Shown here one piece after another: positions 24,284-57,996 of a DNA stretch of 64,000 nt. The DNA is taken from contig CAYVHV010000012.1 of NCBI GenBank assembly GCA_964451305.1, positions 8,353-72,352 on the forward strand. Direction: 5' to 3'. This DNA is from an uncultured Acidimicrobiales bacterium (lineage in GTDB: Bacteria > Actinomycetota > Acidimicrobiia > Acidimicrobiales > SHLQ01). The notes beneath the pieces are model-generated. The model saw nothing but the letters and a program-made list of their open reading frames with translations. It made no database searches and was not told the origin of the DNA. Within the stretch, counting starts at the first letter, position 1; the number at the start of each line of letters is the position of its first letter. The position numbers and the translations under genes are program-made.

Positions 24284-24287
24284 AGCG

Positions 24288-24987: not shown

Positions 24988-25018
24988 CTCATGACCTCAC
25001 GCTCAAGAAACGTCAGAT

Positions 25019-25858: not shown

Positions 25859-25867
25859 GTCGGGAGA

Positions 25868-26845: not shown

Positions 26846-26963
26846 TTACTCGTCTCCTCGACGCCTTGGCACGGCCTCCGAAGGTACCATTCTGACCTCC
26901 GACCTCCACCATTCGCTCCCGGGTACATCGTCTGTCGATCCGGACCGCTCAATAAGGAAATCA

Positions 26964-30607: not shown

Positions 30608-30685
30608 ATCGGCATACCGCGCCGATGCCACAAACGCTCGTCGGCAGCGGCCGAAGAATCCCCCTAGTGGCTAATCTCACCGAGT

Positions 30686-31945: not shown

Positions 31946-32592
31946 CCACCACCGATAGCGACGAAACTCCCGCTCGGCCCGTTCACCTGACCGTCTATTC
32001 GGACTTTCTCTGACCGTGGTGCTACGTCGGGACCGTGCGTCTCGACAAGCTGCAAGAACAGATGGGTGACCGAATCACCGTCGAGTGGAAGTCCTTTCTA
32101 TTGCGAGCGGAGCCAAAGACGGACGATCACGATGCGTTCGTCGAGTACACAACGTCGTGGCTGCGCCCGGCCGAGATGGAGGCCGAAGCACACTTCACCG
32201 TCTGGGCGAGTGCCGAAAGCCAACCCGATTCGAGCATTCCGGCCCAGGTCGCGTTCAAAACTGTCGAGGCGATCGCTCCCGAGCTCGCCAAGCCGTTCCA
32301 CGACCGGCTGATGACCGCATACTTCACCGAGAACCGCAATATCTCAAATAGCGACGTCCTCATGGAACTCGCTGGCGACGTGGGGGTCGATACCGCCGCT
32401 CTTGAAGAAGCGGGCCGAAGCCGCCGTGACGAGTTCACTCAGCTCGTGATCGACGAACACAACAGCGCAATGTCCCACAACGTCACCGGGATACCCACCG
32501 TGCTGTTTGAGAATCAGTTCCCCGTGCCGGGCGCGCAACCGCTCGCCGCATATGTGGACATCGTCGAACGGATCGAAGCGCACTTCGCGTAG
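31942..32592 (+). CDS. DsbA/FrnE-family thiol:disulfide oxidoreductase with in-frame TGA at the first Cys of CPWC (candidate Sec codon, or nonsense-disrupted gene)
   Basis: Manual translation from ATG 31942 (ATGA overlap with the upstream stop): MTTTDSDETPARPVHLTVYSDFL-TGA(32011-32013)-PWCYVGTVRLDKLQEQ..., continuous with track ORF 32035..32592. C-terminus NVTGIPTVLFENQFPVPGAQP is the DsbA/FrnE cis-Pro region. Confidence 0.6.
32026..32046 (+). promoter_or_regulatory. Hairpin 12 nt downstream of the in-frame TGA (SECIS-like candidate)
   Basis: gtcggga(c) / (g)tctcgac gives 7-8 bp including one G-U pair. The apical loop ccgtgcg contains GU, and a possible 3-bp lower stem (tgc/gca region) is separated by an internal loop. 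Confidence 0.35.
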
Positions 32593-32653
32593 CTGTGACC
32601 TGACCTGCTCGCGAGCGTTGACTACGGTGTGGCTGAACCGGCGGCTTTGACAC

Positions 32654-33247
32654 ATGACTTTCTCTTTCGAACCACAACTGATCAAACAGGACTCGGCGGT
32701 TCCCCTCAGAATGATGACCGGCGGCTGGATAGCTGGCGCTGCGATCATCTTGCTCATCGGACCGGTAGCAAACCGGCTCATTGCATTCATGGGAATCTCC
32801 TTGATCGCCGGGGGCTTGATCGCGCTTCACCTGCGTGGCACTCGCATGTGGCGGATGGTCCTCGGCGCGAGCGCTGGGGCTGTCGCTGCGTGGCTCGGCT
32901 TTCGTTTCGCATTCTCCGATCGACTACTCCCAGCGACCAGCGACCCGCTCGAGCTGGCAAATACCGATCTGCTCTTCGCCGTCGCCCTCGGTCTTTGTGT
33001 CCTTTCGATTGGTCTCGGCGGAGTGCTCGAGGCGGTCCGCGCACAGGGAACGCCGGGCTCATCTCCCGTTCCGGTCAAGATCTTCCTCATCGTCGTCGGC
33101 CTATTTATTACCGCGGCGATTGCGAGCGGCGCTGGGGTCTCTATGGGAATCACCCTCCTGCTCGCCATCGGTGCTGCTGCTGGACTGAGCGCTATGGCCT
33201 TCCTCCGAAGAGAACGTCCGGCGAGCGACTTCGTCCCACAACCCTGA
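32654..33247 (+). CDS. Hypothetical polytopic membrane protein
   Basis: ORF 32654..33247(+). About five hydrophobic segments (WIAGAAIILLIGPV..., FMGISLIAGGLIAL..., LLFAVALGLCVLSIGLGGV..., IFLIVVGLFITAAIA..., ITLLLAIGAAAGL). Confidence 0.6.
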   Translation: MTFSFEPQLIKQDSAVPLRMMTGGWIAGAAIILLIGPVANRLIAFMGISLIAGGLIALHLRGTRMWRMVLGASAGAVAAWLGFRFAFSDRLLPATSDPLELANTDLLFAVALGLCVLSIGLGGVLEAVRAQGTPGSSPVPVKIFLIVVGLFITAAIASGAGVSMGITLLLAIGAAAGLSAMAFLRRERPASDFVPQP

Positions 33248-33263
33248 CGGCTAGCCTCTCGGC

Positions 33264-34433
33264 GTGCGCGTACTCATCATCTCCAACGACGTCATCTCCG
33301 GCTTCGGGGTCCCCGTTGCGGCGCCTGGTCTACGGGCCATGGGCTTGGCCGCTGGTCTGACCGCTCACGGCCACGATGTATCGACATCGGTCCCGAGCGA
33401 CCTGCTCGCGCTCGTTTTCGGTGACGAGATCCCTCCAGCGCCCGACGGCGTCGACATCGTGTCTCCTCCCGATTTGATGGCTCACATAGAGCAGATCGGC
33501 GCCGACACCGTCGTATTTATCAACTCAAATTTGTCGCCACACCTGCACCCAACGCCAGGCGTCACGTTCGTCTACGACCTCTTTGCTCCGAAGTTGCTCG
33601 AGGGTCTAGCGAGCACGACCGGTGGGCGTCCGTTCGCTGGTGCGGCAGCGGAGAAGGAACGGGCACTTGCGCTCGCCGACCATGTGTGGGTGAATGGCCG
33701 GCGCAAGATGGGCTATGCGCTCGGTTGGTTACTGCGTGACGAGGTCGACCGGATCCGTACAGAGATCTTCGCCAAGCCTTCGCTTCGTGACCGCGACGTG
33801 GCGAACATGATCACCTTGGTCGAGATGCCGGTGTCGCTCCCCGAAACGGTCGAGGTTTCCACCGTCACGACCACCGAATCGCCAGACCCGGTGCGCCTCG
33901 GCCTTGCCGGATACGCACAAGCATGGAGCACGCTGTCCGAGGTCGCTCTTGGCCATCGGCTGATGATCGACGCTGGACATGCACTTCACGCCCTCACGCC
34001 ACAACACTGGGCGGGAAATCCCGATGATGCGCCGCGCCAAGCACTCCCTCCCGAAACGATTCTCCACGACGGACCATTGCCGTTCGATGAGTTCGCCCGC
34101 TGGGTGCAATCGATGGATGCGATGGTCGATCTCTTCGAACCCAGCGCAGAACGCGCCTTTGCCATGATCACGCGAAGCGCTGTAGCTCTTCGGCTCGGAG
34201 TGCCGCTTATCCATGCGGTCGATTCGGAGATCTCCGACGTAATCGAGTTCTACGACGCCGGCTGGGTTCTCGATCCTCACGATCACGATCGCTGGAACCA
34301 GATCGCCGTCGAGGTAGCAGATCCATCGATCCTCACTCGAAAGCAGCAGGGCGCTCGCCGAGTTTCACTCGAACGGTTTGCTCCTCACGCAGCCCTCGCC
34401 GAAGCGTCTGCTCGGCTGCAACACGCGACGTAA
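33264..34433 (+). CDS. Glycosyltransferase, GT-B fold (GT4-like, divergent)
   Basis: ORF 33264..34433(+). MRVLIISNDVISGFGVPVAAPGLRAMGLAAGLTAHGHDV is the typical GT4 N-terminus, with a divergent C-terminus ...ERAFAMITRSAVALRLGVPLI. GTG start. Confidence 0.6.
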   Translation: MRVLIISNDVISGFGVPVAAPGLRAMGLAAGLTAHGHDVSTSVPSDLLALVFGDEIPPAPDGVDIVSPPDLMAHIEQIGADTVVFINSNLSPHLHPTPGVTFVYDLFAPKLLEGLASTTGGRPFAGAAAEKERALALADHVWVNGRRKMGYALGWLLRDEVDRIRTEIFAKPSLRDRDVANMITLVEMPVSLPETVEVSTVTTTESPDPVRLGLAGYAQAWSTLSEVALGHRLMIDAGHALHALTPQHWAGNPDDAPRQALPPETILHDGPLPFDEFARWVQSMDAMVDLFEPSAERAFAMITRSAVALRLGVPLIHAVDSEISDVIEFYDAGWVLDPHDHDRWNQIAVEVADPSILTRKQQGARRVSLERFAPHAALAEASARLQHAT

Positions 34434-34444
34434 GGAGCGGCACC

Positions 34445-35518
34445 ATGTCAGAAACCGCCCCGACGAATCTGAGCGTGCTCGTTCCATTCTGGGGACTCGC
34501 TGGCGGGGTCATCAAGATCCTCGACTATGCGGCCCACGGAGTAGACCTCGGATTGGCGGTCACCGTCTGGGCTCCTCCACTTCCCGAAGCGGATCATCCA
34601 ATACATCAACTACCGGTCGCTCGACGTCTGATCGATGACCCTGCGGTGGATATCGCCCTCCTCGATGAACTCGACCTTCGAGACCGGGCAGGTGTCGGCC
34701 ACGTCGCCCTCTTTACCGAACCCACACATCATCGCCTGATCGAGCGAGCGATCGATCGACCTCTCGGCGCAACGCTGTGCCACCTGGTCCAAGGCACTCG
34801 ACATGCAAACCCGCTCTGGCAAGACGGCGTGAACTATCGGCTGTTACACCGACCGATGACCCGGATCGCCGTCACCCCCCAAGTCTTTGATGCGATCTCT
34901 CCGCTGGTCAACCAACGCTTCTCGCTCACCACGATCGTCGAGGGTCACGCTGCGGAGTACTTCAGCGGACGTCCCCCTCGCGACACGCTCGAAACACAGA
35001 CAGCTCGACCGTTGCGGGTTCTCTACACCACATGGAAATCTGACCTCGGCGACCGCGTTGCTGAGCTACTGGCCAACGACGAACGCTTCGCATTTATCGC
35101 AGTCCGCTCAGAAACCTCATGGCCGGCGTTGAGAAATCGGTACCACGGCGCCGACGTTCTCCTCTGCGCTCCTGGCCCCGAAGAGGGCTTCTACCTCCCT
35201 GGGCTTGAGGCAATGGCGGCCGAGGTCGCTGTGGTCTCTGCTGTCGTCGGCGGCAACGCCACCTATCTACATGACGGGGAGAATGCGTTGGTGGTTGGCT
35301 ATGACGACGCGGAGCAACATCGCGCAGCGCTCGTTCGCTTGGCCGAAAACCCGTCCTTGCGTCAGACGCTCGTAGCGACCGGCCGAGAGACAATTGCCCG
35401 CCATTCCCTTGTCCGAGAACGCGCCGATTTCAAAAGCGTCCTCGCAAACACACAACGCTCCGAACCAGCGCAGAACGGCCAACTAGCCTACGAAGCGAAC
35501 GACCAGGAGGCCCCATGA
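34445..35518 (+). CDS. Glycosyltransferase family 4 (GT-B)
   Basis: ORF 34445..35518(+). ...LLCAPGPEEGFYLPGLEAMAAEVAVVSAVVGGNATYLHDGENALVV contains the E-x7-E nucleotide-sugar motif. Confidence 0.75.
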   Translation: MSETAPTNLSVLVPFWGLAGGVIKILDYAAHGVDLGLAVTVWAPPLPEADHPIHQLPVARRLIDDPAVDIALLDELDLRDRAGVGHVALFTEPTHHRLIERAIDRPLGATLCHLVQGTRHANPLWQDGVNYRLLHRPMTRIAVTPQVFDAISPLVNQRFSLTTIVEGHAAEYFSGRPPRDTLETQTARPLRVLYTTWKSDLGDRVAELLANDERFAFIAVRSETSWPALRNRYHGADVLLCAPGPEEGFYLPGLEAMAAEVAVVSAVVGGNATYLHDGENALVVGYDDAEQHRAALVRLAENPSLRQTLVATGRETIARHSLVRERADFKSVLANTQRSEPAQNGQLAYEANDQEAP

Positions 35519-35817
35519 GCAGCACATCGCCAAATATCGGACTCACGCCAGCGACACCCATCACCTCCGATGAGAAGGCCGAACTCGACTTCCTGCGCTA
35601 TGAGGCGGCATACCTGCAACGCCGACTCGACGTTGTCGAAGACGAACTTGTTCACACCATCATCGAGCGCGACACCATTCGTCATGAGCGAAACCTAATG
35701 GCTCAGGACTTCTCGTGGACCCTCCAACGCCTCGCCCGCTCGCCAGCCGGTGTCGTGTTGTCACGCACCGCTGGATTCCGGCGCATGCTCGAAACGTGGG
35801 GACATGCCGCCGACTGA
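35515..35817 (+). CDS. Hypothetical small protein with predicted coiled coil
   Basis: ORF 35515..35817(+). ATGA overlap with the preceding GT. EKAELDFLRYEAAYLQRRLDVVEDELVHTIIERDTIRHE is heptad-like. Confidence 0.5.
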   Translation: MSSTSPNIGLTPATPITSDEKAELDFLRYEAAYLQRRLDVVEDELVHTIIERDTIRHERNLMAQDFSWTLQRLARSPAGVVLSRTAGFRRMLETWGHAAD

Positions 35818-36505
35818 CCGTCCATCGATAGAGGTCGTGCCAACGGCCGATCCAGAGGCACCCCCGCCCTTGACCCGTTGCTGCTATCGCGGGCGGCTCC
35901 GTCTTTCGGGGCCGGCGTCCGACGGCGAAGCCACCTTCGACGACTTGGTGATGCCGTCGGAACTCAACGACGCAATGTCATCGGCCGACATCGTGTCGAT
36001 CCTCGACCCGATGTCGTTCCCGTGGAACTCGATCGATCTCGATGTAAACGCGGTCGTGATCATCGACGCGTCGATGTGCAGCGATGACGACCTCGATGCT
36101 CTGCTGCCCGTGCTCGGTTCGCTGACCGCCGCAGACACGGTCATCGATCCGACCGACTCTCCCTCGCGTTCGTTGAGCCGAGCGTTGGGAACTCGCACTC
36201 ATCAGCCGTCGGTCGATGAGTGGCCGGCAGTCCAGCAGGAGAAGCACCTCCTGCGAGCCGATCGTCGAATCACCGATCGAATCGCCCGAGAGATCGGCGA
36301 CCACGCCATTGTCCAGCGCGTCGAGATCGACGAGCTCGTGGCGTCAGGAATTCGGATCGATACTTACCTATCTGAGGCCGCTGCTGCGCTGGATAGCACG
36401 GCGGTTGGCCTCTGGGGAGTCCGCACCGAGCCAGGCGCCCCGTTGCATCATGGATGGGCAATCTTTGAACCAACAGGTCACACGAACCAATGCATCCAGT
36501 ACTGA
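35804..36505 (+). CDS. Hypothetical protein
   Basis: ORF 35750..36505(+), with start moved to ATG 35804 (MPPTDRPS), overlapping the previous gene by 14 nt. No motif recognised. Confidence 0.45.
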   Translation: MPPTDRPSIEVVPTADPEAPPPLTRCCYRGRLRLSGPASDGEATFDDLVMPSELNDAMSSADIVSILDPMSFPWNSIDLDVNAVVIIDASMCSDDDLDALLPVLGSLTAADTVIDPTDSPSRSLSRALGTRTHQPSVDEWPAVQQEKHLLRADRRITDRIAREIGDHAIVQRVEIDELVASGIRIDTYLSEAAAALDSTAVGLWGVRTEPGAPLHHGWAIFEPTGHTNQCIQY

Positions 36506-37254
36506 TCGCCGGGGTCCACCGAAGCGGGACATCGTGGGTTGCGCGAACGCTCCACGAGGCTGGAATGAACCTCGGAGACGACCTCCTCGGCGACCAACCA
36601 GGCAATCCATACGGTCATTTCGAAGACAACCGCGTCGTTGCATTGCACGATGCCGCGCTCGAAGAACAAGACTTGACATGGAAGAGCACGACTCCGGTCC
36701 AACATCGTTCAGAGTCCGACCTACGTGTTGGTATCGATGCGATCGTACGTGAGCGAAGCAATACGGCGACACCGTGGGCCATAAAGGACCCTCGGCTGTG
36801 CTTGTTTCTTCCGGAATGGCTTGCCGTTGCACCCCAGAGTCGCCTGATCGTCGTCTTTCGCAGACCCGACGAGGTTGTCGAGTCGCTGCGCCGACGACAC
36901 GCCCGGCGATGGGTCCACACTCGCCATGTTGATCCAAGCGATCTTGCCTTTTGGGAACAGCCCGACCTTGGACTGCACCTGTGGGTTCACTACAACGAAC
37001 AACTGCTCATCAGCGCGAGATCAATGGATCCAGGTCACGTGCACGTCATCGAATGGAACACCACCGGCGCGACTTCGAGGCTGGTCTCATCGATCGCCGA
37101 GAAATGGAATCTCGAACTTACGCCGACGACGATTTCCCTAGATCCCACGCTCGGGAAACGTTCCACACGCCCGCTCGAAGTCCATGATCCACGTTTGATC
37201 ACCCGAGCGGAAGCAGCGTGGGCTGGTCTTCAGGAACTGCGAAGCGCTCCATAG
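36490..37254 (+). CDS. Sulfotransferase family protein
   Basis: ORF 36490..37254(+). VLIAGVHRSGTSWVARTL is 5'-PSB-loop-like and VVFRRPDEVVESLRRR is 3'-PB-like (R-x7-S). Overlaps the previous gene by 16 nt. Confidence 0.65.
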   Translation: MHPVLIAGVHRSGTSWVARTLHEAGMNLGDDLLGDQPGNPYGHFEDNRVVALHDAALEEQDLTWKSTTPVQHRSESDLRVGIDAIVRERSNTATPWAIKDPRLCLFLPEWLAVAPQSRLIVVFRRPDEVVESLRRRHARRWVHTRHVDPSDLAFWEQPDLGLHLWVHYNEQLLISARSMDPGHVHVIEWNTTGATSRLVSSIAEKWNLELTPTTISLDPTLGKRSTRPLEVHDPRLITRAEAAWAGLQELRSAP

Positions 37255-37329
37255 TCCACCGGGGCCTATTTTCGTCTCGTTGCAACAGTTCGTCTCAAGT
37301 CATCGAGAGCCGACGCCGATCTCCTCGGT

Positions 37330-37845
37330 ATGGACATGATTGGAGATCGTCGCGGGAAATCACGTCGCAAGATCGTTCTTCTCGATCTCGAAAATATGCT
37401 CTTTGGCGATCACAAGGGCAACGACAACGGCCAGCCACGCGACCGCTCAGCGGAAATTCTTGAACTCGCTCAAGCTCGCCGACCCGGCGACACCATCATC
37501 GTTGGATGCAACCCCCACCTCGTCTTCCTCGCTCACGACCTTTTCCCTGGATCCAAGATCGTGACGGGCAAAGGCAAGGACGGCGCCGACCTCGCATTGA
37601 TCGATGCCCTCGATCTCTCCCGAGCAATCGACCGGTATGACGAACTCTGTATCGTCTCGGGCGATCACCTCTTCTGCGAAGTGGCCCACCCCGCGCACTA
37701 CGCAGGCCTCACGGTGCGCATCGTTGCTCCGCACGCAGGCCTGAGCACTGCACTTCGGGTATACGCCGACACTGCAGTCTTCCTTCCCGAAGAATTTGAT
37801 CCCGAAGCCGACGACGAGCTCGACGCCGGCCCACTCGCCGCCTGA
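37330..37845 (+). CDS. NYN/LabA-like (PIN-fold) domain protein
   Basis: ORF 37330..37845(+). IVLLDLENML..., ...GKGKDGADLALIDAL... and ...LCIVSGDHLF...GLTVRIV match the NYN domain acidic-residue pattern. Confidence 0.7.
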   Translation: MDMIGDRRGKSRRKIVLLDLENMLFGDHKGNDNGQPRDRSAEILELAQARRPGDTIIVGCNPHLVFLAHDLFPGSKIVTGKGKDGADLALIDALDLSRAIDRYDELCIVSGDHLFCEVAHPAHYAGLTVRIVAPHAGLSTALRVYADTAVFLPEEFDPEADDELDAGPLAA

Positions 37846-37920
37846 CCAAGAACGCATCAGCGCCGAACGGCCTCCAAATTTCGTCTAAGGGCAACCGCTT
37901 CCAAGGCCGATGCCACTTGG

Positions 37921-38286
37921 ATGGAACGGCGCCTATTTCATCGTGAGAGCATTGCAATGAATGGCGACCTTTCATGGGTAACCAAAGGGCGCCTCGGCCG
38001 CAAGCAAACGCAGCGTTCGTATGTGAGAACCCTCAACCTGTCCCTCGATGGCGCCCGTATCGAGCTGAAGGGCCACTACCCGTTCCTCGTCGACGCGGTC
38101 GCTCGAATACAACTTGGGATTCGTTACTGCGACGTGCGCATACTCGACGTCGTACACACAGGCGAGCGCACGATCTTGCGTATCTTCTTCATCTCACCAG
38201 ACCCAGACTTCGTGTCGGTGATAGAGGATCAGCTCCCGTCACTCACCGCAGATCGTGAGCTCCATGAACGCAAGTGGATGGCCTAA
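37921..38286 (+). CDS. Stand-alone PilZ domain protein (putative c-di-GMP receptor)
   Basis: ORF 37921..38286(+). RRLFHR at residues 3-8 (RRxxxR) and NLSLDG at 39-44 ((D/N)xSxxG), with canonical ~30-residue spacing. Confidence 0.7.
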   Translation: MERRLFHRESIAMNGDLSWVTKGRLGRKQTQRSYVRTLNLSLDGARIELKGHYPFLVDAVARIQLGIRYCDVRILDVVHTGERTILRIFFISPDPDFVSVIEDQLPSLTADRELHERKWMA

Positions 38287-38948
38287 CGCTTCTTCGGCCG
38301 ATTCATCTTTGCTTCGAGTGTGACCTGCTTCTTTGTCGCAGCCCACGAGCAGATCGGGCACTCCTCAAGATCGTGATAGCGGGCCGGGCAATACTCTCGC
38401 CCGAAGAAGATGATTTGCAGGTGCCTCCGGTTCCACGTGTCCTCGGGGAATACTGCCTTTAGGTCTTTCTCGGTTCGTTCGACCGTCGTCCCGTTCGAGA
38501 GGCCCCACCGATTCGCGAGGCGATGAATGTGGGTATCGACGGCGAAGGCAGGCACATCGAACGCACCGGCCATAACGACGCTCGCTGTCTTGTGCCCCAC
38601 TCCGGCGAGTGACTCAAGGAAATCCCAGTCCGGAATGATCTCTCCCCCCGCATCGACGATCTGGTGGGCCATCGTCGACAAGTTCCGGGCTTTGGTCGGA
38701 GCGAGACCGATCTGCTTGATCAACGACAGAATCTCGTCTGGATGCAGCGCAGCCATCTTTTCGGGGGTGTCCGCGACCGCGAAGAGCCCCGGCGTCACCT
38801 CGTTGACCTTCTTGTCGGTGGTTTGAGCGGACAGAGCGACAGCGACCACCAGCGTGTACGGGTCGTGATGGTCGAGAGGAACAGGGGTCTCGGGATACAG
38901 ATCGTCCAACATCACGCCGATGCGGTCCGCTTTCTCAGCACGTTTCAT
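38283..38948 (-). CDS. nth: Endonuclease III (HhH-GPD family)
   Basis: ORF 38283..39257(-) trimmed to ATG 38948. ...DPYTLVVAVALSAQTTDKKVN...LAGVGHKTASVV...AVDTHIHRLANRWG gives the HhH plus catalytic Lys/Asp pattern. Cys-rich C-terminal loop CPARYHDLEECPIC. Confidence 0.85.
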   Translation of the reverse strand: MKRAEKADRIGVMLDDLYPETPVPLDHHDPYTLVVAVALSAQTTDKKVNEVTPGLFAVADTPEKMAALHPDEILSLIKQIGLAPTKARNLSTMAHQIVDAGGEIIPDWDFLESLAGVGHKTASVVMAGAFDVPAFAVDTHIHRLANRWGLSNGTTVERTEKDLKAVFPEDTWNRRHLQIIFFGREYCPARYHDLEECPICSWAATKKQVTLEAKMNRPKKR

Positions 38949-39041
38949 GCCCCGCACCCTACCCAGCACCAGATCGACGGAACGAAGAAGTTCACCTCGG
39001 TGGGTGTGCAAACCAGGGAACACTGTCGGCAAACTAGAGGG

Positions 39042-40025
39042 ATGACGCCCCTCGAAGTTCTTCCGCGAGAAGGAGCCGGTGCCGAAGTACTCGGGGTTGA
39101 TGTGTCCGCCATGACCGTCGGCGAATGGAACCAGATCGAAGCGGCCTTCGCCGCGTTCGGTCTCCTGGTATTCCGAGACCAGATTCTGACCGAGCGCGAC
39201 CACGTCGAATTCGCGCAACGTTGGGGGGCTCCCGTTCCCCCTGACCGTCGGGCGCATCCGACCGAGCCTGAAATCGCCGTTCGGGATGCAACGTCACCCT
39301 CGGAACCAGGGAGCCAGAGCACACAAGGGGTCTGGTACGCCGATCGAAGCTATGCCTTGCGCCCACCACTCGGATCGGTCGAGATCGCTCGAGAGATTCC
39401 AGCCGGTGGGGCAACGACCATCTTTGCCGACACGCACGCCGCATTCGACACGTTGAGCAGCGGCACGCAGCGGGCGTTGGAAGCGCTCCGTGCGGTCCAT
39501 ACACACCCGGTACCCGGTGGTGATGTTGAGGAATCTCGACATCCAATTGTGATCCACCACCCGGTGAGTGGTCGAAAGACGCTCTTCGTCAATCCAACAT
39601 TCACCACGAGCGTCGAAGACATGGACGAACGAGAAGGCCTTGGACTGCTCAACCAGTTGTACGACCATTGCCAGCAGCCCGAGTTTCTGACCACGGTCGA
39701 ATGGGAACTTGGAATGGTCGTCATATGGGACAGTCGAGCGGTCTGGGAATTCTCTCCTCGTGCAACCGACCAGCCGACCATGCACCGGGTCACGATCTCT
39801 GGCACCGAGCTACGACCCGCAATCGCCCCTGCAAAGAAGGACCCGACGCTCACCCAACGCGCTGGAGCGACCCTCGCCGGAGGCATTCTGACAGCAGCGA
39901 TGACCGGCATTGCCGAGGTGATCGACCCCGAACGGGTCAAACACGACATCGAAATTGTGAGTGAGGCACCCGAGCCCGATGACCTCCCCGATTTCGACTT
40001 TGGTGAGCTCCCCCCACTGGACTAA
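39042..40025 (+). CDS. TauD/TfdA-family protein with non-canonical metal-site residues
   Basis: ORF 38664..40025(+) trimmed to ATG 39042 (after AGAGGG). Collinear with my recollection of E. coli TauD. WYAD replaces WHTD, IWDSRAVWEF replaces IWDNRVTQHY, and MHRVTISG matches MHRATILG. Confidence 0.75.
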   Translation: MTPLEVLPREGAGAEVLGVDVSAMTVGEWNQIEAAFAAFGLLVFRDQILTERDHVEFAQRWGAPVPPDRRAHPTEPEIAVRDATSPSEPGSQSTQGVWYADRSYALRPPLGSVEIAREIPAGGATTIFADTHAAFDTLSSGTQRALEALRAVHTHPVPGGDVEESRHPIVIHHPVSGRKTLFVNPTFTTSVEDMDEREGLGLLNQLYDHCQQPEFLTTVEWELGMVVIWDSRAVWEFSPRATDQPTMHRVTISGTELRPAIAPAKKDPTLTQRAGATLAGGILTAAMTGIAEVIDPERVKHDIEIVSEAPEPDDLPDFDFGELPPLD

Positions 40026-40029
40026 CCGG

Positions 40030-40905
40030 CTAGCCGACGCGCCCGACCGGCGATCCCCAACGCTGACGAAGTGCATCGAGGATCGCTGCTTTACGAGCGC
40101 TCGCCGACCAGTAGGGCGTTCGACGCTTCGGATCGATTGCACCGGCGAGCAATTGCCAGATCATCAACGCGAACCGCATAGCGGCCTTGCGTCGACCGAA
40201 TTGTCGAGACATCAAGAGAATCGTGTTGCGTTCCATCAAATACTCGACGGTTGGAGACGGCGTGCTCACCATGGGGTTCTCGACCATTGCGCCGCGAACC
40301 AATCCCACGTCGAAGCCCGCCTTCTTTGCGCGCAAACCTAGGTCGGCTTCCTCGCAATACGCGAAGTAGCGCTCATCGAACAGCCCGATGGTCGACAAGC
40401 ACGTACGGCTTGCCATCATCATCGTTCCATGTGGGTAGTCGACCTCTTCAAAGCCAACGTCACCGGCGGCAGGAACGAGAATCGGGCCAAAGACATGGTC
40501 GACGAATGGGCGCAGTCCATCACCAACATCGGCACTCAACAACCCCGCGTCCGGATGCTCGTCTGCAGCGCGAAGCATCATCGAGAGCGTGTCGGGAGCC
40601 GGCAGCGCGTCGTGCGGGGCAACAACGGACCACTCGCCTCCGGATTCGTCGCGTAACCATTGTTCCCAGCCGCGATTCGCAGCGGGTCCAAAGCCACTGT
40701 TGAAACCGACCTCGATTAGGGAGAGATCACGCTCTGAGATTGCGGCGAGACGTTCGTGTAGCTCCCGTTGGTTCTCCGCTGTCGAGCCGTTGTCGACGAT
40801 CACCACCCGAGCGACCTCGGGCAACGCCGAGAACCTTCGAGCGGTTTGAGCGCACGAGCGTGGTTGGTTCCAATGAATGAGGATGACCGTTACGGACGCC
40901 TGCAT
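40030..40905 (-). CDS. Glycosyltransferase family 2
   Basis: ORF 40030..40944(-). VTVILIHWNQP...RVVIVDNGSTAENQ...LSADVGDG... is the GT-A fold with a DxD-like region. Start taken at the internal ATG 40905. Confidence 0.75.
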   Translation of the reverse strand: MQASVTVILIHWNQPRSCAQTARRFSALPEVARVVIVDNGSTAENQRELHERLAAISERDLSLIEVGFNSGFGPAANRGWEQWLRDESGGEWSVVAPHDALPAPDTLSMMLRAADEHPDAGLLSADVGDGLRPFVDHVFGPILVPAAGDVGFEEVDYPHGTMMMASRTCLSTIGLFDERYFAYCEEADLGLRAKKAGFDVGLVRGAMVENPMVSTPSPTVEYLMERNTILLMSRQFGRRKAAMRFALMIWQLLAGAIDPKRRTPYWSASARKAAILDALRQRWGSPVGRVG

Positions 40906-40915
40906 CCTCTGGAAG

Positions 40916-41941
40916 CTACCGGATTGGTCGAAGCCCGGTAACAACGATCGACGTATCGAGATCTTTGAGTTGCTCGGTGAGCCGAAGTATGACGTCGTTG
41001 CCGAGATCGCTCACGCCCATGTCGGCGGCGACCTGCATGTCATTGCGAGCCGACAGCTGATCGAGCTCGGAGCCATGTGGAGTGAACGAGAGAACATCGA
41101 GTTCGACCTCGCCGTCTTGACCAATCGCTCCGGCTAACCCTGCGAGGAGCGGAACGAAGACTTGGATCTCGCCCGAGTCGTCGTGAAAGGTGCCAACGCA
41201 GCCGCGAATTGGTCCGCCGCAAACAGTATTTGAGTAGTAGCCCCGAAGCGTGGCACGAACACCCGGGTTCGCTTGACGATCGGTCTTGAACTCGTCGACG
41301 GTGTGGCTGGGTCCGCGTAGGTTGAAATGGTCGGGAGGAAGCCCGTCAGCTGATAACCAATGCGCCGGAAAGCGGCTTCGATCGACCGATTCGATACGAC
41401 GAGGCGCCGAAGCTGACACGAACTCGCGAACCTCTCGGGTTGCTAGCGCCTCGAGATGGGTTCGGTGAAGACCGCCGCGGGCGGTATCGACGAGGTCGCG
41501 TTCGAAGGCCAATGCGAGCAGATCGAAGAGTCCGGACATGCCAAATGCCCACAGGTCGACGTGGCTGTCGTTGTCCTCACCGCGAAAGATCCGTCCACCG
41601 GGGTGCGATGCCGATGCGAGTTCGATCCAGAGACGGGTGTTCGCCCAATCCGCTATCGGCAAGAGGACCGCTGGCGCGATCGGACGTTCCCTCTCACGCT
41701 GTTCGAGCAGCGCGTGGATTGGGATGAACCCCTCGAGGCATGGCCACTGGACCGTCGAAGGATCCCACGTATTCCAGAAAGAACGCAGTTCCATCGGCAG
41801 GCGCAAGGGGGCGATTGCCTCCTCGATCTCACCGATGTGCCGACGGTGCTTGGAACGACGCGACCAAGGCCGTATCGATACGCCGTATGGTCGGCCTGAG
41901 AAATTAAGGCGTTCGATCGCCTCGTCTACCAAGATCATCAC
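40916..41941 (-). CDS. Hypothetical protein with SMI1/KNR4 (SUKH)-like N-terminal region
   Basis: ORF 40916..41941(-). ...IEEAIAPLRLPMELRSFWNTWD...LLPIADWANTRLWIEL... resembles the SUKH pattern. The C-terminal ~170 aa are unassigned. Confidence 0.4.
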   Translation of the reverse strand: MMILVDEAIERLNFSGRPYGVSIRPWSRRSKHRRHIGEIEEAIAPLRLPMELRSFWNTWDPSTVQWPCLEGFIPIHALLEQRERERPIAPAVLLPIADWANTRLWIELASASHPGGRIFRGEDNDSHVDLWAFGMSGLFDLLALAFERDLVDTARGGLHRTHLEALATREVREFVSASAPRRIESVDRSRFPAHWLSADGLPPDHFNLRGPSHTVDEFKTDRQANPGVRATLRGYYSNTVCGGPIRGCVGTFHDDSGEIQVFVPLLAGLAGAIGQDGEVELDVLSFTPHGSELDQLSARNDMQVAADMGVSDLGNDVILRLTEQLKDLDTSIVVTGLRPIR

Positions 41942-41995
41942 ACGAGGAATCGGCGTGGAAAAGCGTCGCCTTTACCCATTGTCCAAGATTTTGGG

Positions 41996-42406
41996 TCAGA
42001 CAAATCCGCGGCGAATTCGAAGCGACGACCACGCCCACTGCGACAGCGGTATGACGACCACCGCTGGCGCAAACGCAGCGACGCACAATCCGTACCAAAC
42101 AATGTGTGGCGCCGAGTCAGCACTGAGCGATGCATCTCCGAATTCGACCCAACTCAGCACGAAGAACGCAGCGCTGAGCCCGAGCGAGATCCCGGCGCGC
42201 TCGCTCCATTGATCATCGCTTGCAAGACGCGAGGCAGCAAAGACGGATGCGACGACCATGATGACCCCGACACCGCTGCCGTTGTTGTCGATCGTTGCTG
42301 GGTTCCCATCGATGTACCGAGCAACGACATACGAAGCCCACGCAGCGAACGGGATGAAAACACTCGCCGCAACCAATCGGAGAATCCGCCCTGGAGTTCC
42401 ACTCAT
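41996..42406 (-). CDS. Hypothetical membrane protein (4 predicted TM)
   Basis: ORF 41996..42406(-). Four hydrophobic segments; no motif recognised. Confidence 0.5.
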   Translation of the reverse strand: MSGTPGRILRLVAASVFIPFAAWASYVVARYIDGNPATIDNNGSGVGVIMVVASVFAASRLASDDQWSERAGISLGLSAAFFVLSWVEFGDASLSADSAPHIVWYGLCVAAFAPAVVVIPLSQWAWSSLRIRRGFV

Positions 42407-42584
42407 TCCTCCACGCTCTCACCCTTGGGCGACCACCGCTAGGGTCGCCCGGCCCACCGATTCGTGGCGTCTGAACTTGCATTCGACCGCGAGTACAACC
42501 TGCGGTACCCTCCCATAAGGCGGTCGAGGAAATGTACTTCCATGACCATGGAATTCATTCGTCACAATACGAGGTCAAACACTT

Positions 42585-44057
42585 ATGAAGGTTCAATCCC
42601 CCCGGCGAGGGAAGAAACTCGCCTCCGCCCTGCTTACTGCCGGTGTTGTCGGCGCGACGCTGGTCGCTCCCACGTCCGCAGTTGGCGCTCAGACAGCAAC
42701 CTCGTGCGGAACCGCTCCGGCTGGGTACAACGTCATCGAATCCAATGCCCGCATCATTCGCGGCACGACCGGACCAGACTTCATCTGTGCTGGCCCGGGT
42801 AACAACATCATTCGCGCAATGGGCCAAGACGACATCATCTTTGGTGGCGACGGCATCGACGTGATCTTTGGCGGATTCGGCAATGACACCATCGATGGTG
42901 GCGCAGGCGACGACCGAATCACCGCAGGTTCCGGCCTCGACACCGTGAACGCTGGGCCCGGCAATGACACTGTTCTTGCAGGCAATGGCCCCGACGTCGT
43001 CGATGGCGGCGCAGGCGCCGACCAATTGACCGGCGGCAACGGCAACGACACGCTCTCCGGTGGTGTCGGCAACGACCGACTCATCGGCAACATGGGCCTC
43101 GACACCTTGATTGGAAACGACGGCCGGGACACGCTTCAGGGCGGCATCGGCAACGACCGGATCATCGGCGGAAACGGCCATGACAATCTCAACGGTGGCG
43201 ACAGCGACGATGTCCTCTTCGGCGGCAACGGCAACGACCTCCTTCAGGGTGGTAACGGCGAAGATCAGCTCACCGGCGGCAACGGCAACGACGATCTCCG
43301 AGGACAGGGCAACCCCGACATCCTTCGGGGAAACAACGGTGACGACATCTTGAACGGTGGCAACGGCCTCAACACCGCTGTCGGCGGAGATGGCGCCGAC
43401 GTGTGCTTTAATGCAGCCGGCGACGGAACGAGCTGTGAGTCCCTCGACGGTGTGGTACTCGCTGAACCTTCTCAGGTCATCATCGCAACCTTCCCTAACG
43501 AAATCGGGGGCTTGGCGACGATCACTGGTCAGAACTGGCGAGTGAACCCATCGTTCCCACTCGAAGCAGACATTCGTGTCACCATCCCTGGCCTTCAGCC
43601 AGGCTCGGCAACGATCGTCGACGGTAGCTGGGCAGTTACAGCGCCATCGTCGTTCGCATTCGGCACGGACATCACCGCCACCAACCTGAGCACGACCCAG
43701 GTGCTCGATCAGGCGCTTGAGAGCTTCGACTACAACCCACGGACCCGGGATCTCACGGTCACGGGCGAGACGGATGCGACCGTCCGAGTGCTTGTCTACA
43801 ACAACGCTGACGAGCTCGTGTTTGTCGAGCAGATCACCTTCGATGCGGCTGGAAACGGTGAGGCGAACTTCACCGAGGTTGCAAACATTGGGTCGATCGA
43901 TATCTCCCGACAGGATTCTGACGGCGACATTGCGGTGTACCTCGATGTGCACCGCGATCCGGTAGATCTGACCGCTCCAGCTGCACCACAAGATGATGCG
44001 GCCGACGACGACGAAGAGATCGAAGATACCCCCGAGGACATCCCCGACGAGGTATAG
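42585..44057 (+). CDS. Secreted calcium-binding RTX-type (GGxGxD nonapeptide) repeat protein
   Basis: ORF 42585..44057(+). Signal peptide MKVQSPRRGKKLASALLTAGVVGATLVAPTSAVGA, then roughly 20 consecutive nonapeptides (GGNGNDTLS GGVGNDRLI ...). These are followed by ~200 aa of non-repeat sequence and an acidic tail DDAADDDEEIEDTPEDIPDEV. Confidence 0.85.
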   Translation: MKVQSPRRGKKLASALLTAGVVGATLVAPTSAVGAQTATSCGTAPAGYNVIESNARIIRGTTGPDFICAGPGNNIIRAMGQDDIIFGGDGIDVIFGGFGNDTIDGGAGDDRITAGSGLDTVNAGPGNDTVLAGNGPDVVDGGAGADQLTGGNGNDTLSGGVGNDRLIGNMGLDTLIGNDGRDTLQGGIGNDRIIGGNGHDNLNGGDSDDVLFGGNGNDLLQGGNGEDQLTGGNGNDDLRGQGNPDILRGNNGDDILNGGNGLNTAVGGDGADVCFNAAGDGTSCESLDGVVLAEPSQVIIATFPNEIGGLATITGQNWRVNPSFPLEADIRVTIPGLQPGSATIVDGSWAVTAPSSFAFGTDITATNLSTTQVLDQALESFDYNPRTRDLTVTGETDATVRVLVYNNADELVFVEQITFDAAGNGEANFTEVANIGSIDISRQDSDGDIAVYLDVHRDPVDLTAPAAPQDDAADDDEEIEDTPEDIPDEV

Positions 44058-44078
44058 CCCGACGCCTACTATGGCGCT

Positions 44079-44993
44079 GTGACGTCGCCACAGCCGAAAC
44101 GACTCATCTGGGTTGTTCCGGCTGTGGCTTTCGTCATTTTTGGGTTCGCTGGGCCTGCTACACAGGTTGACGGTCTTGCCCAAGAGGCGACAAAGATCGT
44201 TGTCGAAGCAACTGCGACATCGATCTCAAAGGAGACTGCGATAGCCCCGGCCGTCCCAGAGCCTCAGGTCCTTGGCGAAGCACAGATTGCTGGACCCACG
44301 ACGACACAACCCGCTCCCGTCACCCCGACAGCCCCTCCGGCTCCAACCCGACCCGATCGAGCAGAGTTGACCCCAGCCCAGCTCGCCGATCGCAGGCTTG
44401 ATACCTTCGATGCGCTGGACCCTCCAATCGACGACGTCTTTGTCTCGACGGTCGAATCGCCGGCCCCTCTGGATGTCATCGCACGAAGCACATGGAACCC
44501 GGAGTGCCCTGTTAGCCCGGCCGACCTGTCGTATGCACAAGTGTCCTTCTACGGCTTCGACGGCCGCTTCCATACCGGTGAGCTGTTGCTCCACTCCGAG
44601 TACGCAGACGATATTGTCGGGATCTTTGCTCGACTGCACGAGATGCGATTCCCGATTGAAGAGATGCGCGTGGTGTCACTAGATGACTTCGCAAACCCGA
44701 TCGCCACCGAGAACAACACGACGGTCTTCACCTGTCGACGATCGGTGTCTTCGTCACGTTGGTCGCGCCACGCCCACGGCGATGCCATCGATATCAACCC
44801 ATTCCACAATCCGTACGTATCGAACAGCCGTGTCATTCCTGAACTGGCAACCGCCTACGTCGACCGCGATCGTGAAGTCCCTGGTCTCATCAACGCCGAA
44901 GTGCGGGCGATGTTCAGCGAGATCGGCTGGGGTTGGGGCGGCAACTGGAATTCCGTCAAAGACTGGATGCACTTCAGCGCAACGGGCAGGTAA
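44079..44993 (+). CDS. M15-family (VanY/LD-carboxypeptidase-like) peptidoglycan peptidase, membrane-anchored
   Basis: ORF 44079..44993(+). N-terminal TM LIWVVPAVAFVIFGFAG, then ...SRHAHGDAIDINP... (H-x6-D) and ...DWMHFSATG (distal His). GTG start. Confidence 0.75.
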   Translation: MTSPQPKRLIWVVPAVAFVIFGFAGPATQVDGLAQEATKIVVEATATSISKETAIAPAVPEPQVLGEAQIAGPTTTQPAPVTPTAPPAPTRPDRAELTPAQLADRRLDTFDALDPPIDDVFVSTVESPAPLDVIARSTWNPECPVSPADLSYAQVSFYGFDGRFHTGELLLHSEYADDIVGIFARLHEMRFPIEEMRVVSLDDFANPIATENNTTVFTCRRSVSSSRWSRHAHGDAIDINPFHNPYVSNSRVIPELATAYVDRDREVPGLINAEVRAMFSEIGWGWGGNWNSVKDWMHFSATGR

Positions 44994-45017
44994 CGCGCTC
45001 GACGCGCGCCGACCGGC

Positions 45018-46169
45018 CTAGCTCGCGTCTATCGCCGGTTCATCTCCATCGGCCATGATCCACTCGGCGAGCTTCTCCAAGCGGTGAACGCCCAGGTACG
45101 CGAGCACCAGCCCAACGACTGCAAAGACGAGCAACACGATGTCGGTTCGGAGTTGATCGAGGAAAATCGCGGTGGTCGCCACCTCCAGGAGCGCCATGAA
45201 GGCAACGAACCTGATCACCGTTCTCTCACTGACCTTCGCGGCAACCCACGCGCCCAAGGGCGCTCCCCAGACCACGATCGGTGCAGCGGCGAGCCAAATG
45301 CCAAAGAGGTCGAACTGTACGGCCGGCTCGGGCCCGAAGGTCGCTCCGGCGACCGCAACGACCTCGCTGCCATCTGGGTTGAGGCCAATATCGAGCTGAC
45401 CATGCCAGAATCCGAGCACGAACAACCCGACGAGCGAGACGGTTGCCATCGCAATGATGCTCGTCGGGATGGCGACCTTTGGCGTGACTCCGGCTACCAG
45501 CACGATGAACACGAAGAGGAAGACATCGGTTCCTGAACCGGTCAGCGCCGAAAACAGTCCACCGACAAAGGCGAAGACGGACATGACGAGCACGGAACGA
45601 AAACCCCAGTCGGGCACCTCGTCATAGCGCGAGGTCCGGTTCGAGCAGATGCGAACGATGACCGCCACCGCAAAGATTGCGATCGTGAACGCTACCTTGA
45701 CGAACGATGGCTCGATGCGCGGAGACCAAAACGGTGTATTCGGGTCGCCGAGAGCAACCAGGCCAACGCCGAACCCGACGATGCCACCAGCCACTCCTAA
45801 CCCGAGCGCCTTCCAATCAATTTTGCGTCCGGACAAGATGATCGATGCTGACGCCATGACCATCCCGGTGGCCTGAATCACGATGGAGAACGTGCGCGCG
45901 ACCGGAGCCGAAATTCCGATCACCTTCGTAAAGACTGGAAATGCCACCGCGCCACCGCCTTGTGGGGTGGATCCTGCAACGAAGCTGCCGACGACCATCG
46001 TTGCCGAAGAACGCCAATTGTCTAGAACCCTGTCGAAGTGTCCAAAGGTAAACACAAAGACGAACCACCCAATGGTGAAGGCTGCGGGCAGACCCCAGAC
46101 AGCCGCTCGCCGAATGACGCCCAGTTCTTTGTCCACTTCGTGTTTCTGGGTTGCCTCGGCCGTATCCAT
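45018..46169 (-). CDS. TauE/SafE (TSUP, DUF81) family anion exporter-like membrane protein
   Basis: ORF 45018..46235(-). Polytopic, with internally repeated halves rich in G/A/V (..VGSFVAGSTPQGGGAVAFPV.., ..GGLFSALTGSGTDVFLF..). Start moved to ATG 46169. Confidence 0.6.
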   Translation of the reverse strand: MDTAEATQKHEVDKELGVIRRAAVWGLPAAFTIGWFVFVFTFGHFDRVLDNWRSSATMVVGSFVAGSTPQGGGAVAFPVFTKVIGISAPVARTFSIVIQATGMVMASASIILSGRKIDWKALGLGVAGGIVGFGVGLVALGDPNTPFWSPRIEPSFVKVAFTIAIFAVAVIVRICSNRTSRYDEVPDWGFRSVLVMSVFAFVGGLFSALTGSGTDVFLFVFIVLVAGVTPKVAIPTSIIAMATVSLVGLFVLGFWHGQLDIGLNPDGSEVVAVAGATFGPEPAVQFDLFGIWLAAAPIVVWGAPLGAWVAAKVSERTVIRFVAFMALLEVATTAIFLDQLRTDIVLLVFAVVGLVLAYLGVHRLEKLAEWIMADGDEPAIDAS

Positions 46170-46306
46170 CACGTCGTGAACCCACCGTCGGCAATAGTTG
46201 TTCCGATTCTGTTCATCTCCTGTGTCGGACTGCACTGCGGATCGAAAGGGAAGAAGAACGAATGATGGGTTTGGAAGTCGCTCTTTGGAACTACTGTTTC
46301 GTGGAT

Positions 46307-46876
46307 ATGGACATCAAAAACAAAAAACCACTGATCGCAGGAGGCGGTATCGTCGCCATCGCCGTCTTGGCGTGGCTCGCCTTCGGATTCTTCGGTATCC
46401 AAACAGCATTTATCGACAATGAGGTTTCTGAGGCAGGACCAACCTTTGGTGACCCTGCCGTCGTCGAGACCGATGAGTTCCAAGAAGCCATGGAGCTTGC
46501 GGAAGAAAACTCAACGTCCACTGCTGAAGGCGATCCCGACATGGCTGGAGAAATCCAGACCGTCTTCACCGGTAGTTTCGAAGACAACGTCATCAACGGA
46601 TACGAGATTCTCGGCACCGCCTCGGTTCTGACCGACGGAAGCGATCAGCGCTTCCTCCGCCTTGAAGGGTTCAACTCGCCCAACGGTCCCGATCTCAAGG
46701 TCTACTTGCGGGCCGCCAACGGAGACTTCGTCAGCCTTGGTGACCTCAAGGGCAACATTGGTGACCAGAACTATGAGATCCCCCCAGATGTCGACCTCAC
46801 CGAATTCAGCTTCGTCGACATTTGGTGCGAGCGCTTTAGCGTCGGCTTCGGCGGAGCACAGCTCGCCGCCGTCTAA
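46307..46876 (+). CDS. DM13-domain protein with N-terminal membrane anchor
   Basis: ORF 46151..46876(+). TM IAGGGIVAIAVLAWLAFGFFGI, then ...GSFEDNVINGYEILGTASVLTDGSDQRFLRLEGFNSPNGPDLKVYL...DIWCERFSVGFGGAQL, which fits the DM13 pattern. Start ATG 46307 (or 46263). Confidence 0.65.
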   Translation: MDIKNKKPLIAGGGIVAIAVLAWLAFGFFGIQTAFIDNEVSEAGPTFGDPAVVETDEFQEAMELAEENSTSTAEGDPDMAGEIQTVFTGSFEDNVINGYEILGTASVLTDGSDQRFLRLEGFNSPNGPDLKVYLRAANGDFVSLGDLKGNIGDQNYEIPPDVDLTEFSFVDIWCERFSVGFGGAQLAAV

Positions 46877-46987
46877 CACGTAGTCACCACCTGGAGATGT
46901 TCCTGCGCCCCCGATTTCGGACGTGGTGCAGGGACATCGTGGTTTTTGGGTTCTTCCATCGCCCCGATCGACAAGTACGGTCGGGTC

Positions 46988-48403: not shown

Positions 48404-48435
48404 GGCCAGTGAACGTCAAAGCACCGCTGGTGGGC

Positions 48436-49662: not shown

Positions 49663-49705
49663 GAGAGCTCCTCGTGCAGTGGCGGCAATCCCGCCGTGAG
49701 ATCTA

Positions 49706-49739
49706 ATCGGTTACTAAGCCTACGAGCTTAGTTACCGAT
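49706..49739. promoter_or_regulatory. Operator-like inverted repeat upstream of the acyl-CoA dehydrogenase
   Basis: atcggttactaagc (49706-49719), spacer ctacga, gcttagttaccgat (49726-49739). 13 of 14 arm positions are complementary. It lies 44-77 nt upstream of the ACAD start codon. Confidence 0.5.
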
Positions 49740-49873
49740 GAGTAACCTCGGCGGGTAAGAAAGTGCCTGAAGTACTAGGACGCCAGCCCCCAAGTTTCAC
49801 AGAGAATTTCGCAGAATTCGCCGAGAAACACTCGAAACCACCTCAGGTGCCCGCCGACGCAGCCGATACAACC

Positions 49874-49891
49874 AATACCAATCTTGGTATT
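49874..49891. promoter_or_regulatory. Perfect 18-bp palindrome upstream of the first cNMP-binding gene
   Basis: aataccaa tc ttggtatt (8-bp arms, 2-bp spacer). It lies ~80 nt upstream of ATG 49973. Confidence 0.45.
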
Positions 49892-49972
49892 CGGCGGAAT
49901 ATGTTATGAAAATCGGCGATCGGCTGCACCAGCAGCATCAATCCACTGCAAATACCTAGGGTCAACCATCAC

Positions 49973-50368: not shown

Positions 50369-50530
50369 CTGCCAACTTGTCGGGCGTCGACATCGACGGC
50401 GACGATGCTGTTGACGAGCCTGCGCGCTGGCTGTGAAAGCGGTCTCAGTGCCCAGAGACACGTCAATTCGGGGCAGGTAATCGACCGACGAACGGTTTGA
50501 GTAGATACCGGAACTCAACTGGAGAAGACC

Positions 50531-50929: not shown

Positions 50930-51024
50930 ACACACGAGAAGACGGCTAGAAAAACTGCTGCGATCACCGAAATCACCCCAGTTTGGTGGTCGAGGGAAGC
51001 TGACACCGCCAGTAGCCTAACGCT

Positions 51025-55857: not shown

Positions 55858-55866
55858 CCTCGAACT

Positions 55867-57969: not shown

Positions 57970-57996
57970 CCCATCATCTTGGCCCGAGGGCCGACT

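Follow-up and report, generated by a model that had tools for sequence, protein, structure and literature searches.

A TauD-fold protein with replaced iron ligands and a conserved C-terminal module in an uncultured Acidimicrobiales bacterium: a probable pseudoenzyme in the making

The DNA analyzed here (hereafter, the window) is a 64,000-nucleotide stretch of contig CAYVHV010000012.1 (assembly GCA_964451305.1) from an uncultured Acidimicrobiales bacterium. A complete coding sequence at 39042..40025 on the plus strand (ATG at 39042, stop at 40023-40025; 327 codons plus TAA) specifies a 327-residue protein that joins a TauD/TfdA double-stranded beta-helix domain (residues 1-255; 39042..39806, +) to a C-terminal module (residues 262-327; 39825..40022, +). 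Both positions occupied in TauD by iron-binding His residues are substituted, the catalytic site has degenerated repeatedly among the orthologues, and the module is homologous to a family of free-standing small proteins. The protein is probably a scaffold-plus-tail protein with little or no dioxygenase function.

Membership of the TauD/TfdA family fold is confirmed by both profile and predicted structure. The match to Pfam TauD (PF02668; E value 1.8e-41) scores 143 bits against a cut-off of 27 and spans profile positions 9-248 of 267, while the solved TauD, RdpA/AAD-1, PlaO1, and AtsK sequences are matched by HMMER with E values from 5e-34 to 4e-15. An AlphaFold2 model built from the family alignment has a mean predicted local distance difference test (pLDDT) score of 88.8, with values of 92-98 throughout the catalytic fold except in the loop at residues 81-100. 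Superposition of the model on TauD (PDB: 3pvj, chain B) with Foldseek gives an E value of 2.5e-25, a TM score of 0.85 (normalized by target length), and 28-31% identity. Approximately 30 residues of a TauD loop are missing between residues 156 and 166 of the query; the long loop at residues 62-98 is kept in the window copy and the loop at residues 153-167 is short.

The 2-His-1-carboxylate triad that defines a functional Fe(II)/2-oxoglutarate (2OG) dioxygenase is, judging from the aligned sequence, absent. The site of the first iron-binding His (H99 in TauD) is occupied by Tyr99 (codon TAC at 39336..39338, +), one base removed from the His codon CAC, and that of the second (TauD H255) by Glu236 (GAA at 39747..39749, +), two base changes from CAY. 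The carboxylate ligand is kept as Asp101 (GAT at 39342..39344, +; TauD D101). Both residues that bind the C5-carboxylate of 2OG are also kept, namely Thr126 (ACC at 39417..39419, +; TauD T126), in a column that is 98% Thr among tail-less relatives, and Arg249 (CGG at 39786..39788, +; TauD R266), in a column that is 96% conserved among them. HMMER alignment to the TauD, RdpA, and AAD-1 chains sets W-Y99-A-D101 of the query opposite W-H-T-D, V-W-E236-F-S opposite T-Q-H-Y/F-A, and M-H-R249-V-T-I opposite M-H-R-A-T-I. Y99, D101, E236, and R249 fall in the identical columns of a MAFFT alignment of 121 sequences, and the Pfam match, the third independent alignment, likewise reads Y99-x-D101...E236. 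An initial sequence-only reading of this locus had claimed collinearity with E. coli TauD, a Tyr, Asp, Glu triad, and a retained 2OG-binding Arg context. All three claims are borne out by these alignments, Thr126 joins the retained residues, and a search of the metal-ligand strands for another His found none.

The substitutions are real and the gene is maintained. Exactly the same protein is present on 18 contigs (NCBI and ENA), and within the 90% identity cluster of the query, which includes the variants A83L, A83T, and D243E, Y99 and E236 occur in all five variants that cover both positions, the Glu being found also in one shorter fragment that reaches residue 236. The two residues are therefore fixed and are not read errors. 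Comparison with the nearest orthologue (P0002, at locus L004) yields a proportion of nonsynonymous differences (pN) of 0.10 and of synonymous differences (pS) of 0.69. The corresponding ratio of substitution rates (dN/dS) is about 0.05, with dS saturated; it is 0.045 for the catalytic part and 0.051 for the tail, and the calculation was limited to the nearest orthologues because farther comparisons are saturated at synonymous sites. From residue 254 on, the protein is identical to P0002 (84% identity) save for four substitutions in the last 28 residues. P0002 has Asn (AAC) at position 236, so this position has changed more than once. The gene is under purifying selection and is not a pseudogene. 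A decaying gene, a recent pseudogene with a chance open frame, or an assembly or sequencing artefact might have been suspected from the replacement of two of the three metal ligands and from the loop deleted relative to TauD. However, the frame is open over all 327 codons, a point already raised against simple decay in the sequence-only reading and now strengthened by the pN and pS values, by the identical protein on 18 independent contigs, and by the synteny described below. A pLDDT above 92 over the fold and the nearly unchanged tail point the same way, and we give decay or artefact hardly any credence.

The pattern across the clade indicates that the window copy belongs to a series. The set examined comprised 66 relatives and the query, all spanning the full length of the query including the last ~70 residues. 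H-D-H and the Arg together survive in 21 of the 66 relatives; the remaining 45 are degenerate, and in heterogeneous ways. The residues at positions 99, 101, and 236, followed by that at 249, read HDN/R, HER/R, HSH/Q, HNH/T, HDR/R, RES/R, REN/R, QDR/T, HGR/T, HLQ/R, SVS/T, KVS/R, YGH/R, FGQ/R, NGH/G, SDL/M, or HPV/R. In 50 tail-less relatives used for comparison, H-D-H is present in all 50 and the Arg in 48. The Y/D/E combination is limited to the query's own cluster (at least 99% identity), and the nearest orthologues have HDN, HER, HSH, and HNH, so there is no conserved Y/E subfamily such as the sequence-only reading had proposed to look for. That reading had also entertained the opposite case, a lone degenerate outlier among HxD...H orthologues; such orthologues do exist, but the query is far from alone in having departed from them.

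In a neighbor-joining tree the tail-bearing proteins form one clade, the basal branches of which are intact, and further intact members (P0005-P0008, P0010, and P0011) lie deep among the degenerate ones. When the tree was rebuilt without the four diagnostic columns and loss was assumed to be irreversible, 8 independent losses were required (bootstrap range 5-10, median 7). Among the degenerate members, conservation falls at D101, P120, G123, and T126 (2OG loop), H236, R249, H72, and N231, and the Arg and the Thr are each kept in 38%. Compared with intact members, the degenerate ones have reduced versions of two loops that border the active site in TauD (median 18 vs 34 and 11 vs 32 residues) and a shorter catalytic part as a whole (median 232 vs 272 residues). 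The last 72 residues, in contrast, have a mean column identity of 0.79 in intact and 0.79 in degenerate members. When pairs with the same tail distance are compared, so that the tail serves as an internal clock, divergence of the catalytic domain proceeds 1.4-1.7 times faster between degenerate proteins than between intact ones. This faster divergence, together with the losses at the individual positions, indicates relaxed selection on the active site, while the fold is still constrained and the tail fully so. The window copy represents an early stage of this degeneration, with both His residues lost and the 153-167 loop short, but with D101, T126, and R249 kept.

The sequence-only reading passed over the C-terminal stretch, which proved to be the most informative feature of the protein: residues 256-327 are the most conserved part of the clade. 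The module, of ~65 residues, consists of a hydrophobic Gly/Ala helix, EPE(K/R), (D/E)IEIV, an acidic linker, and LDFGxLPPLD-COOH. The Gly/Ala-rich helix of the window protein (residues 270-294, LTQRAGATLAGGILTAAMTGIAEVI; 39849..39923, +) and its extreme C-terminal motif, FGELPPLD-COOH (39999..40022, +), occupy the two ends of this arrangement. A word-index search with the tail alone returned two fragments only and missed known clade members, and an exhaustive phmmer search with residues 258-327 against 1.84 billion representative proteins was used instead. It found 25 proteins, of which nine are TauD-like clade members or fragments thereof and 16 are free-standing proteins of 73-109 residues; the latter were recovered down to an E value of 1e-9, and in each the match extends to the protein's own C-terminus. 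The consensus of the resulting alignment, A3, has basic residues followed by G-x-x-L-A-A-A-M-L-G-L-G-E-V-I-E-P-E-K-T-x-V-x-I-E, an acidic Pro-containing linker, and L-D-F-G-D-L-P-P-L-[DNE]-COOH. Throughout A3, which combines tails with free-standing proteins, the Pro of EPE never varies, nor do F, G, L, P, and L in the terminal motif. The query tail conforms to the pattern G-x-x-L-A-A-A-M-x-G-[LI]-[GA]-E-V-[IL]-E-P-E-[KR], acidic linker, and L-D-F-G-x-L-P-P-L-[DNE] end, and matches the A3 profile with an E value of 6.1e-26, the query tail being itself among the 19 rows of that profile. A profile search extended the family to at least 260 clusters of free-standing small proteins of 73-110 residues. 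The named clusters come from Acidimicrobiales, Acidimicrobiaceae, Microthrixaceae, or Candidatus Poriferisocius, and one is assigned only to "Actinomycetota". No match to the module was found in Pfam, NCBIfam, or PDB sequences.

The AlphaFold2 model of the tail consists of a low-confidence helix at residues 270-294 (pLDDT 55-69) followed by coil, which is consistent with a flexible appendage. A role of this helix as a membrane anchor was considered and judged unlikely, since it is less hydrophobic than a membrane span, with a median Kyte-Doolittle value of 1.30, as against 2.13 for a genuine membrane-spanning segment encoded in the window, and a summed Hessa-scale value of +6.3.

The gene context of the free-standing module differs among lineages. 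A degenerate DNA pattern run on metagenomes returned 10 loci, 4 of them with the module. At four loci (L012, 4947-7270; L013, 4916-7297; L014, 4947-7294; L016, 3938-6252) a module gene of 83-98 codons lies 17-48 bp downstream of a gene for a 678-681-residue paralogue of elongation factor G (EF-G). This paralogue contains all five EF-G domains and stands beside the module in one lineage only, which includes Candidatus Poriferisocius. Because the EF-G-like proteins of L012-L014 share 86-92% identity and the L016 protein has a similar score, the four loci are taken to come from closely related genomes and amount to about one observation. Elsewhere, the module gene is found beside epimerase/DUF1731 and Polyketide_cyc2 genes (L015, L017, and L026), with a HAD gene and, just upstream of the module gene, a gene for a LapA-like small membrane protein at L015 and L017; at L018 it follows an unrelated open reading frame of 489 codons. 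No universal partner emerges across L012-L018 and L026.

The TauD-like gene itself occupies a conserved chromosomal position. The closest genome matches are two metagenome-assembled genomes labelled "uncultured Acidimicrobiales", with 71% and 68% identity, and six clade members (33-79% identity) led to eight loci (L004-L011). Seven of these (L004-L010) share a gene order that runs glycosyltransferase, sulfotransferase, NYN-domain protein, ~121-residue protein, nth (-), in some loci a ~490-residue protein with no Pfam match, the TauD-like gene (+), in some loci a family-2 glycosyltransferase (-), a ~340-residue protein (-), and a ~135-residue membrane protein (-). The most distant locus, L011, has the same anchor genes with several extra genes inserted, and is without the ~135-residue minus-strand gene afterwards. 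Because the neighborhood is shared, the clade members are orthologues and not scattered paralogues. The divergent neighbor in the window is nth (endonuclease III; 38283..38948, -), which anchors the synteny in all orthologous loci. On the other side lies a gene for a 341-residue protein with no Pfam match (40916..41941, -), and every clade locus retrieved has a gene of similar size downstream, on the strand opposite to the TauD-like gene. The gene for the ~135-residue membrane protein (41996..42406, -) comes next, as was noted also in L004-L009.

Several further observations concern this neighborhood. The gene of 485-510 codons between nth and the TauD-like gene (L002, 4518-5876; L006, 6413-7945; L009, 6486-7955; L010, 5232-6689; L011, 4269-5786) is 36-60% identical among the four full-length copies compared, is not present in the window, L004, or L007, and occurs independently of the status of the triad. 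Its absence from the window and from those two loci, together with its lack of homology to the 489-codon reading frame at L018, led us to reject a link between the gene and the tail module. One protein, P0065 (452 residues, from a 2.7-kb JGI contig), has an intact TauD-like catalytic part that ends in MHRITID, exactly at the point where the tail would start, and continues in frame into the C-terminal ~180 residues of a homologue of the 341-residue neighbor (47% identity; E value 3e-62). The counterparts in the window are convergent, which leaves a rearrangement or a chimeric assembly as the source of P0065. Three further genes lie no more than 7 kb from the TauD-like gene, namely those for a sulfotransferase-family protein (36490..37254, +), a TauE/SafE sulfite-exporter-family protein (45018..46235, -), and a protein with RTX calcium-binding repeats (42585..44057, +), all three being syntenic in several orthologous loci. 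These neighbors hint that the ancestral enzyme took part in organosulfur metabolism, although they may be mere conserved gene order.

The start at ATG 39042 was set from the N-termini of the orthologues, all of which are conserved as MTPLE[VI]. The mechanically called frame (38664..40025, +) runs 126 codons further upstream to GTG 38664, and that of nth (38283..39257, -) about 103 codons too far upstream, so that the two overlap in antisense; the lengths of the orthologues place the real starts at 39042 and about 38948, respectively. In P0123, P0124, and P0127 (304 residues) the same gene has been called from Met24 (MTVGEW...), with loss of the conserved N-terminal strand MTPLEV..., which is an inconsistency of annotation only. 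Source annotations name some clade members "taurine dioxygenase" (P0013, P0023, and P0027 among others), including the degenerate P0027 (QDH/Q), and this label is almost certainly wrong for most of the clade. One member is assigned to a Verrucomicrobiales metagenome-assembled genome, probably through a binning error, since the synteny of the clade is that of Acidimicrobiales. The GC content of the window is uniform (0.57-0.62), and no tRNA gene and no Rfam family at the gathering threshold was found in positions 1..64000.

Taken together, these data lead us to propose, with a probability of about 0.68, that the gene encodes a folded TauD-fold protein with little or no Fe(II)/2OG dioxygenase function, i.e., a non-catalytic protein of scaffold plus tail. 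The best reading of the window protein is that of a nascent pseudoenzyme, or at most an enzyme with crippled activity: residues essential for catalysis in its enzyme family are missing, and yet the gene is maintained, as purifying selection and conserved synteny attest. Among the three options left by the sequence-only reading, that of a non-catalytic protein derived from a dioxygenase fold is accordingly favored, given that 45 of 66 orthologues are degenerate in heterogeneous ways; decay is rejected on the selection and contig evidence; and a non-canonical metal site as a conserved design is disfavored because Y/D/E is confined to a single cluster and the nearest orthologues have other residues. 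In the proposed scheme, a TauD-family enzyme of an Acidimicrobiales ancestor would have gained the C-terminal module, and its selected role would have become tied to the scaffold plus tail. Catalysis could then have become dispensable, and many lineages would have shed metal ligands, 2OG-binding residues, and substrate loops independently of one another, with selection still acting on the beta-helix scaffold and on the tail. The TauD domain would serve as a stable scaffold presenting a flexible tail, whose terminal linear motif may dock onto a putative partner. We infer such a docking role because the tail is predicted to be flexible, is terminal, is invariant at C-terminal residues, and exists also as a separate gene. 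Since oligomers are the norm in the TauD family, one scaffold may carry several tails.

Several points weigh against this proposal. The window copy retains Asp101, Thr126, Arg249, and a pocket that is conserved for the most part, the neighbor-joining topology has no more than moderate robustness, the low tail pLDDT could also reflect a mere inability of AlphaFold2 to place this part, and the neighbors of the free-standing module vary by lineage and point to no single partner. Furthermore, only Tyr99 is clearly disabling, and residual or altered metal chemistry may persist. A passage in PMC2767507, citing Grzyska et al. 2007, gives 33% activity for E. coli TauD H255E, 81% for H255Q, and none for D101A; E236 alone is thus no proof of inactivity. 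The literature searched gave no account of what a Tyr does in place of H99. The argument for inactivity rests on Y99 together with the clade-wide pattern.

Other explanations of the retained residues can be envisaged. The protein might be a non-catalytic ligand sensor or binder, in which 2OG, succinate, or a sulfonate held by Arg249 and Thr126 modulates the action of the tail. This would suit the retention of both residues in the window copy, the presence of Arg249 also in P0002, P0009, and P0012, and the conservation of the pocket-lining strands between the window copy and P0002. Most degenerate orthologues have, however, lost the Arg and the Thr, so that ligand binding cannot be the function of the clade as a whole, and 2OG binding in this family depends largely on chelation to the metal; we regard a sensor as unlikely. 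A still functional metalloenzyme with Tyr, Asp, and Glu at the site, whether an Fe(II)/2OG oxygenase with reduced activity or a catalyst that relies on a harder metal (Fe(III) or Mn, for example), would be compatible with the conserved Asp101, Thr126, and Arg249, with the activity left to TauD H255E and H255Q, with the near identity of the active-site strands in the window copy and P0002, and with the strong purifying selection on the fold. Three anionic oxygen ligands, on the other hand, would favor Fe(III), which cannot activate O2. The restriction of Y/D/E to one cluster, beside nearest orthologues with HDN, HER, HSH/Q, and HNH/T, the free drift of the same positions across the clade (including to Gly, Arg, Val, and Leu), and the shortening of the loop between residues 153 and 167 also speak against such a site, which makes it distinctly unlikely in our estimation.

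A bolder version of the proposed scaffold-plus-tail protein, which we consider a long shot, would make the module and not the dioxygenase fold the functional unit. The module would be an Acidimicrobiia-specific acidic short-linear-motif adaptor (...LDFGxLPPLD-COOH) that docks on a conserved cellular machine; the ancestral TauD-like protein would have been a protein hydroxylase delivered by its tail to a translation factor or another target, and many descendants would have kept only the oligomeric, tail-displaying scaffold. This idea draws on the close spacing of the module gene downstream of the EF-G paralogue in one lineage. The ribosomal stalk P-proteins of archaea and eukaryotes recruit translational GTPases through acidic, hydrophobic C-terminal peptides, to which the motif of the module is loosely similar.

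Pseudoenzymes are common, while a transition caught in progress is rare. Here, across related genomes, the active site encoded by one orthologous gene at one chromosomal position ranges from intact through half-degraded to fully degraded, with some 5-10 independent losses, and the tail, as an internal control, shows which part of the protein selection maintains. The clade therefore offers a natural series for studying the repurposing of an enzyme fold. The analysis also flags an undescribed small-protein module that is widespread in Acidimicrobiia, an abundant and mostly uncultured aquatic group. Mislabelling of these proteins as "taurine dioxygenase" would, moreover, inflate the inferred use of organosulfonates by these bacteria.

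Among characterized proteins, TauD from E. coli and Pseudomonas putida (PDB: 1os7 and 3pvj) has the same fold, a collinear sequence, and the same Asp, Thr, and Arg positions; the window protein differs in having Y99 and E236 in place of both iron-binding His residues and in the absence of the ~30 loop residues at 156-166. It is not a TauD orthologue, since it scores 134 bits against the NCBIfam TauD equivalog NF007104, the cut-off of which is 313. The best PDB sequence matches are the aryloxyalkanoate dioxygenases RdpA/AAD-1 (6d1o; E value 4.9e-34), and the alkylsulfatase AtsK, also of the TauD/TfdA family, is matched with an E value of 3.6e-15. Unlike the window protein, RdpA, AAD-1, and AtsK are canonical HxD...H enzymes that lack the tail, and among the solved proteins of the TauD family none has the ~70-residue C-terminal extension. 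The Fe/2OG halogenase variant (HxA/G...H) was rejected as a model, given that the window protein keeps the Asp and has lost both His residues.

Parallels are also found among the pseudoenzymes of the 2OG-oxygenase and cupin superfamilies. JARID2, a JmjC protein lacking the iron ligands, is a pseudoenzyme of the 2OG-oxygenase superfamily. Catalytically inactive seed storage proteins are counted among the cupins in a passage of PMC3765361. As in the window protein, the double-stranded beta-helix of such JmjC and cupin pseudoenzymes is kept under selection for a non-catalytic function after loss of the metal ligands. The present case differs in being bacterial, in belonging to the TauD/TfdA branch, in that the loss is repeated among orthologues and not fixed once, and in the coupling to a short C-terminal module that is found also as a free-standing gene. 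AspH, described in passages of PMC10915816 and PMC13168262 as a 2OG oxygenase with a two-ligand iron site that departs from the canonical triad, keeps both His residues and lacks the carboxylate, in a variant that is conserved and active, whereas neither His survives in the window protein, whose variant is not a conserved one. The literature searched contained no description of a pseudoenzyme of the TauD branch, nor of bacterial orthologues in which such loss has recurred, nor of this module. The occurrence of pseudoenzymes in general is expected; what deserves attention in the present case is the undescribed tail module and the way in which the losses form a natural series.

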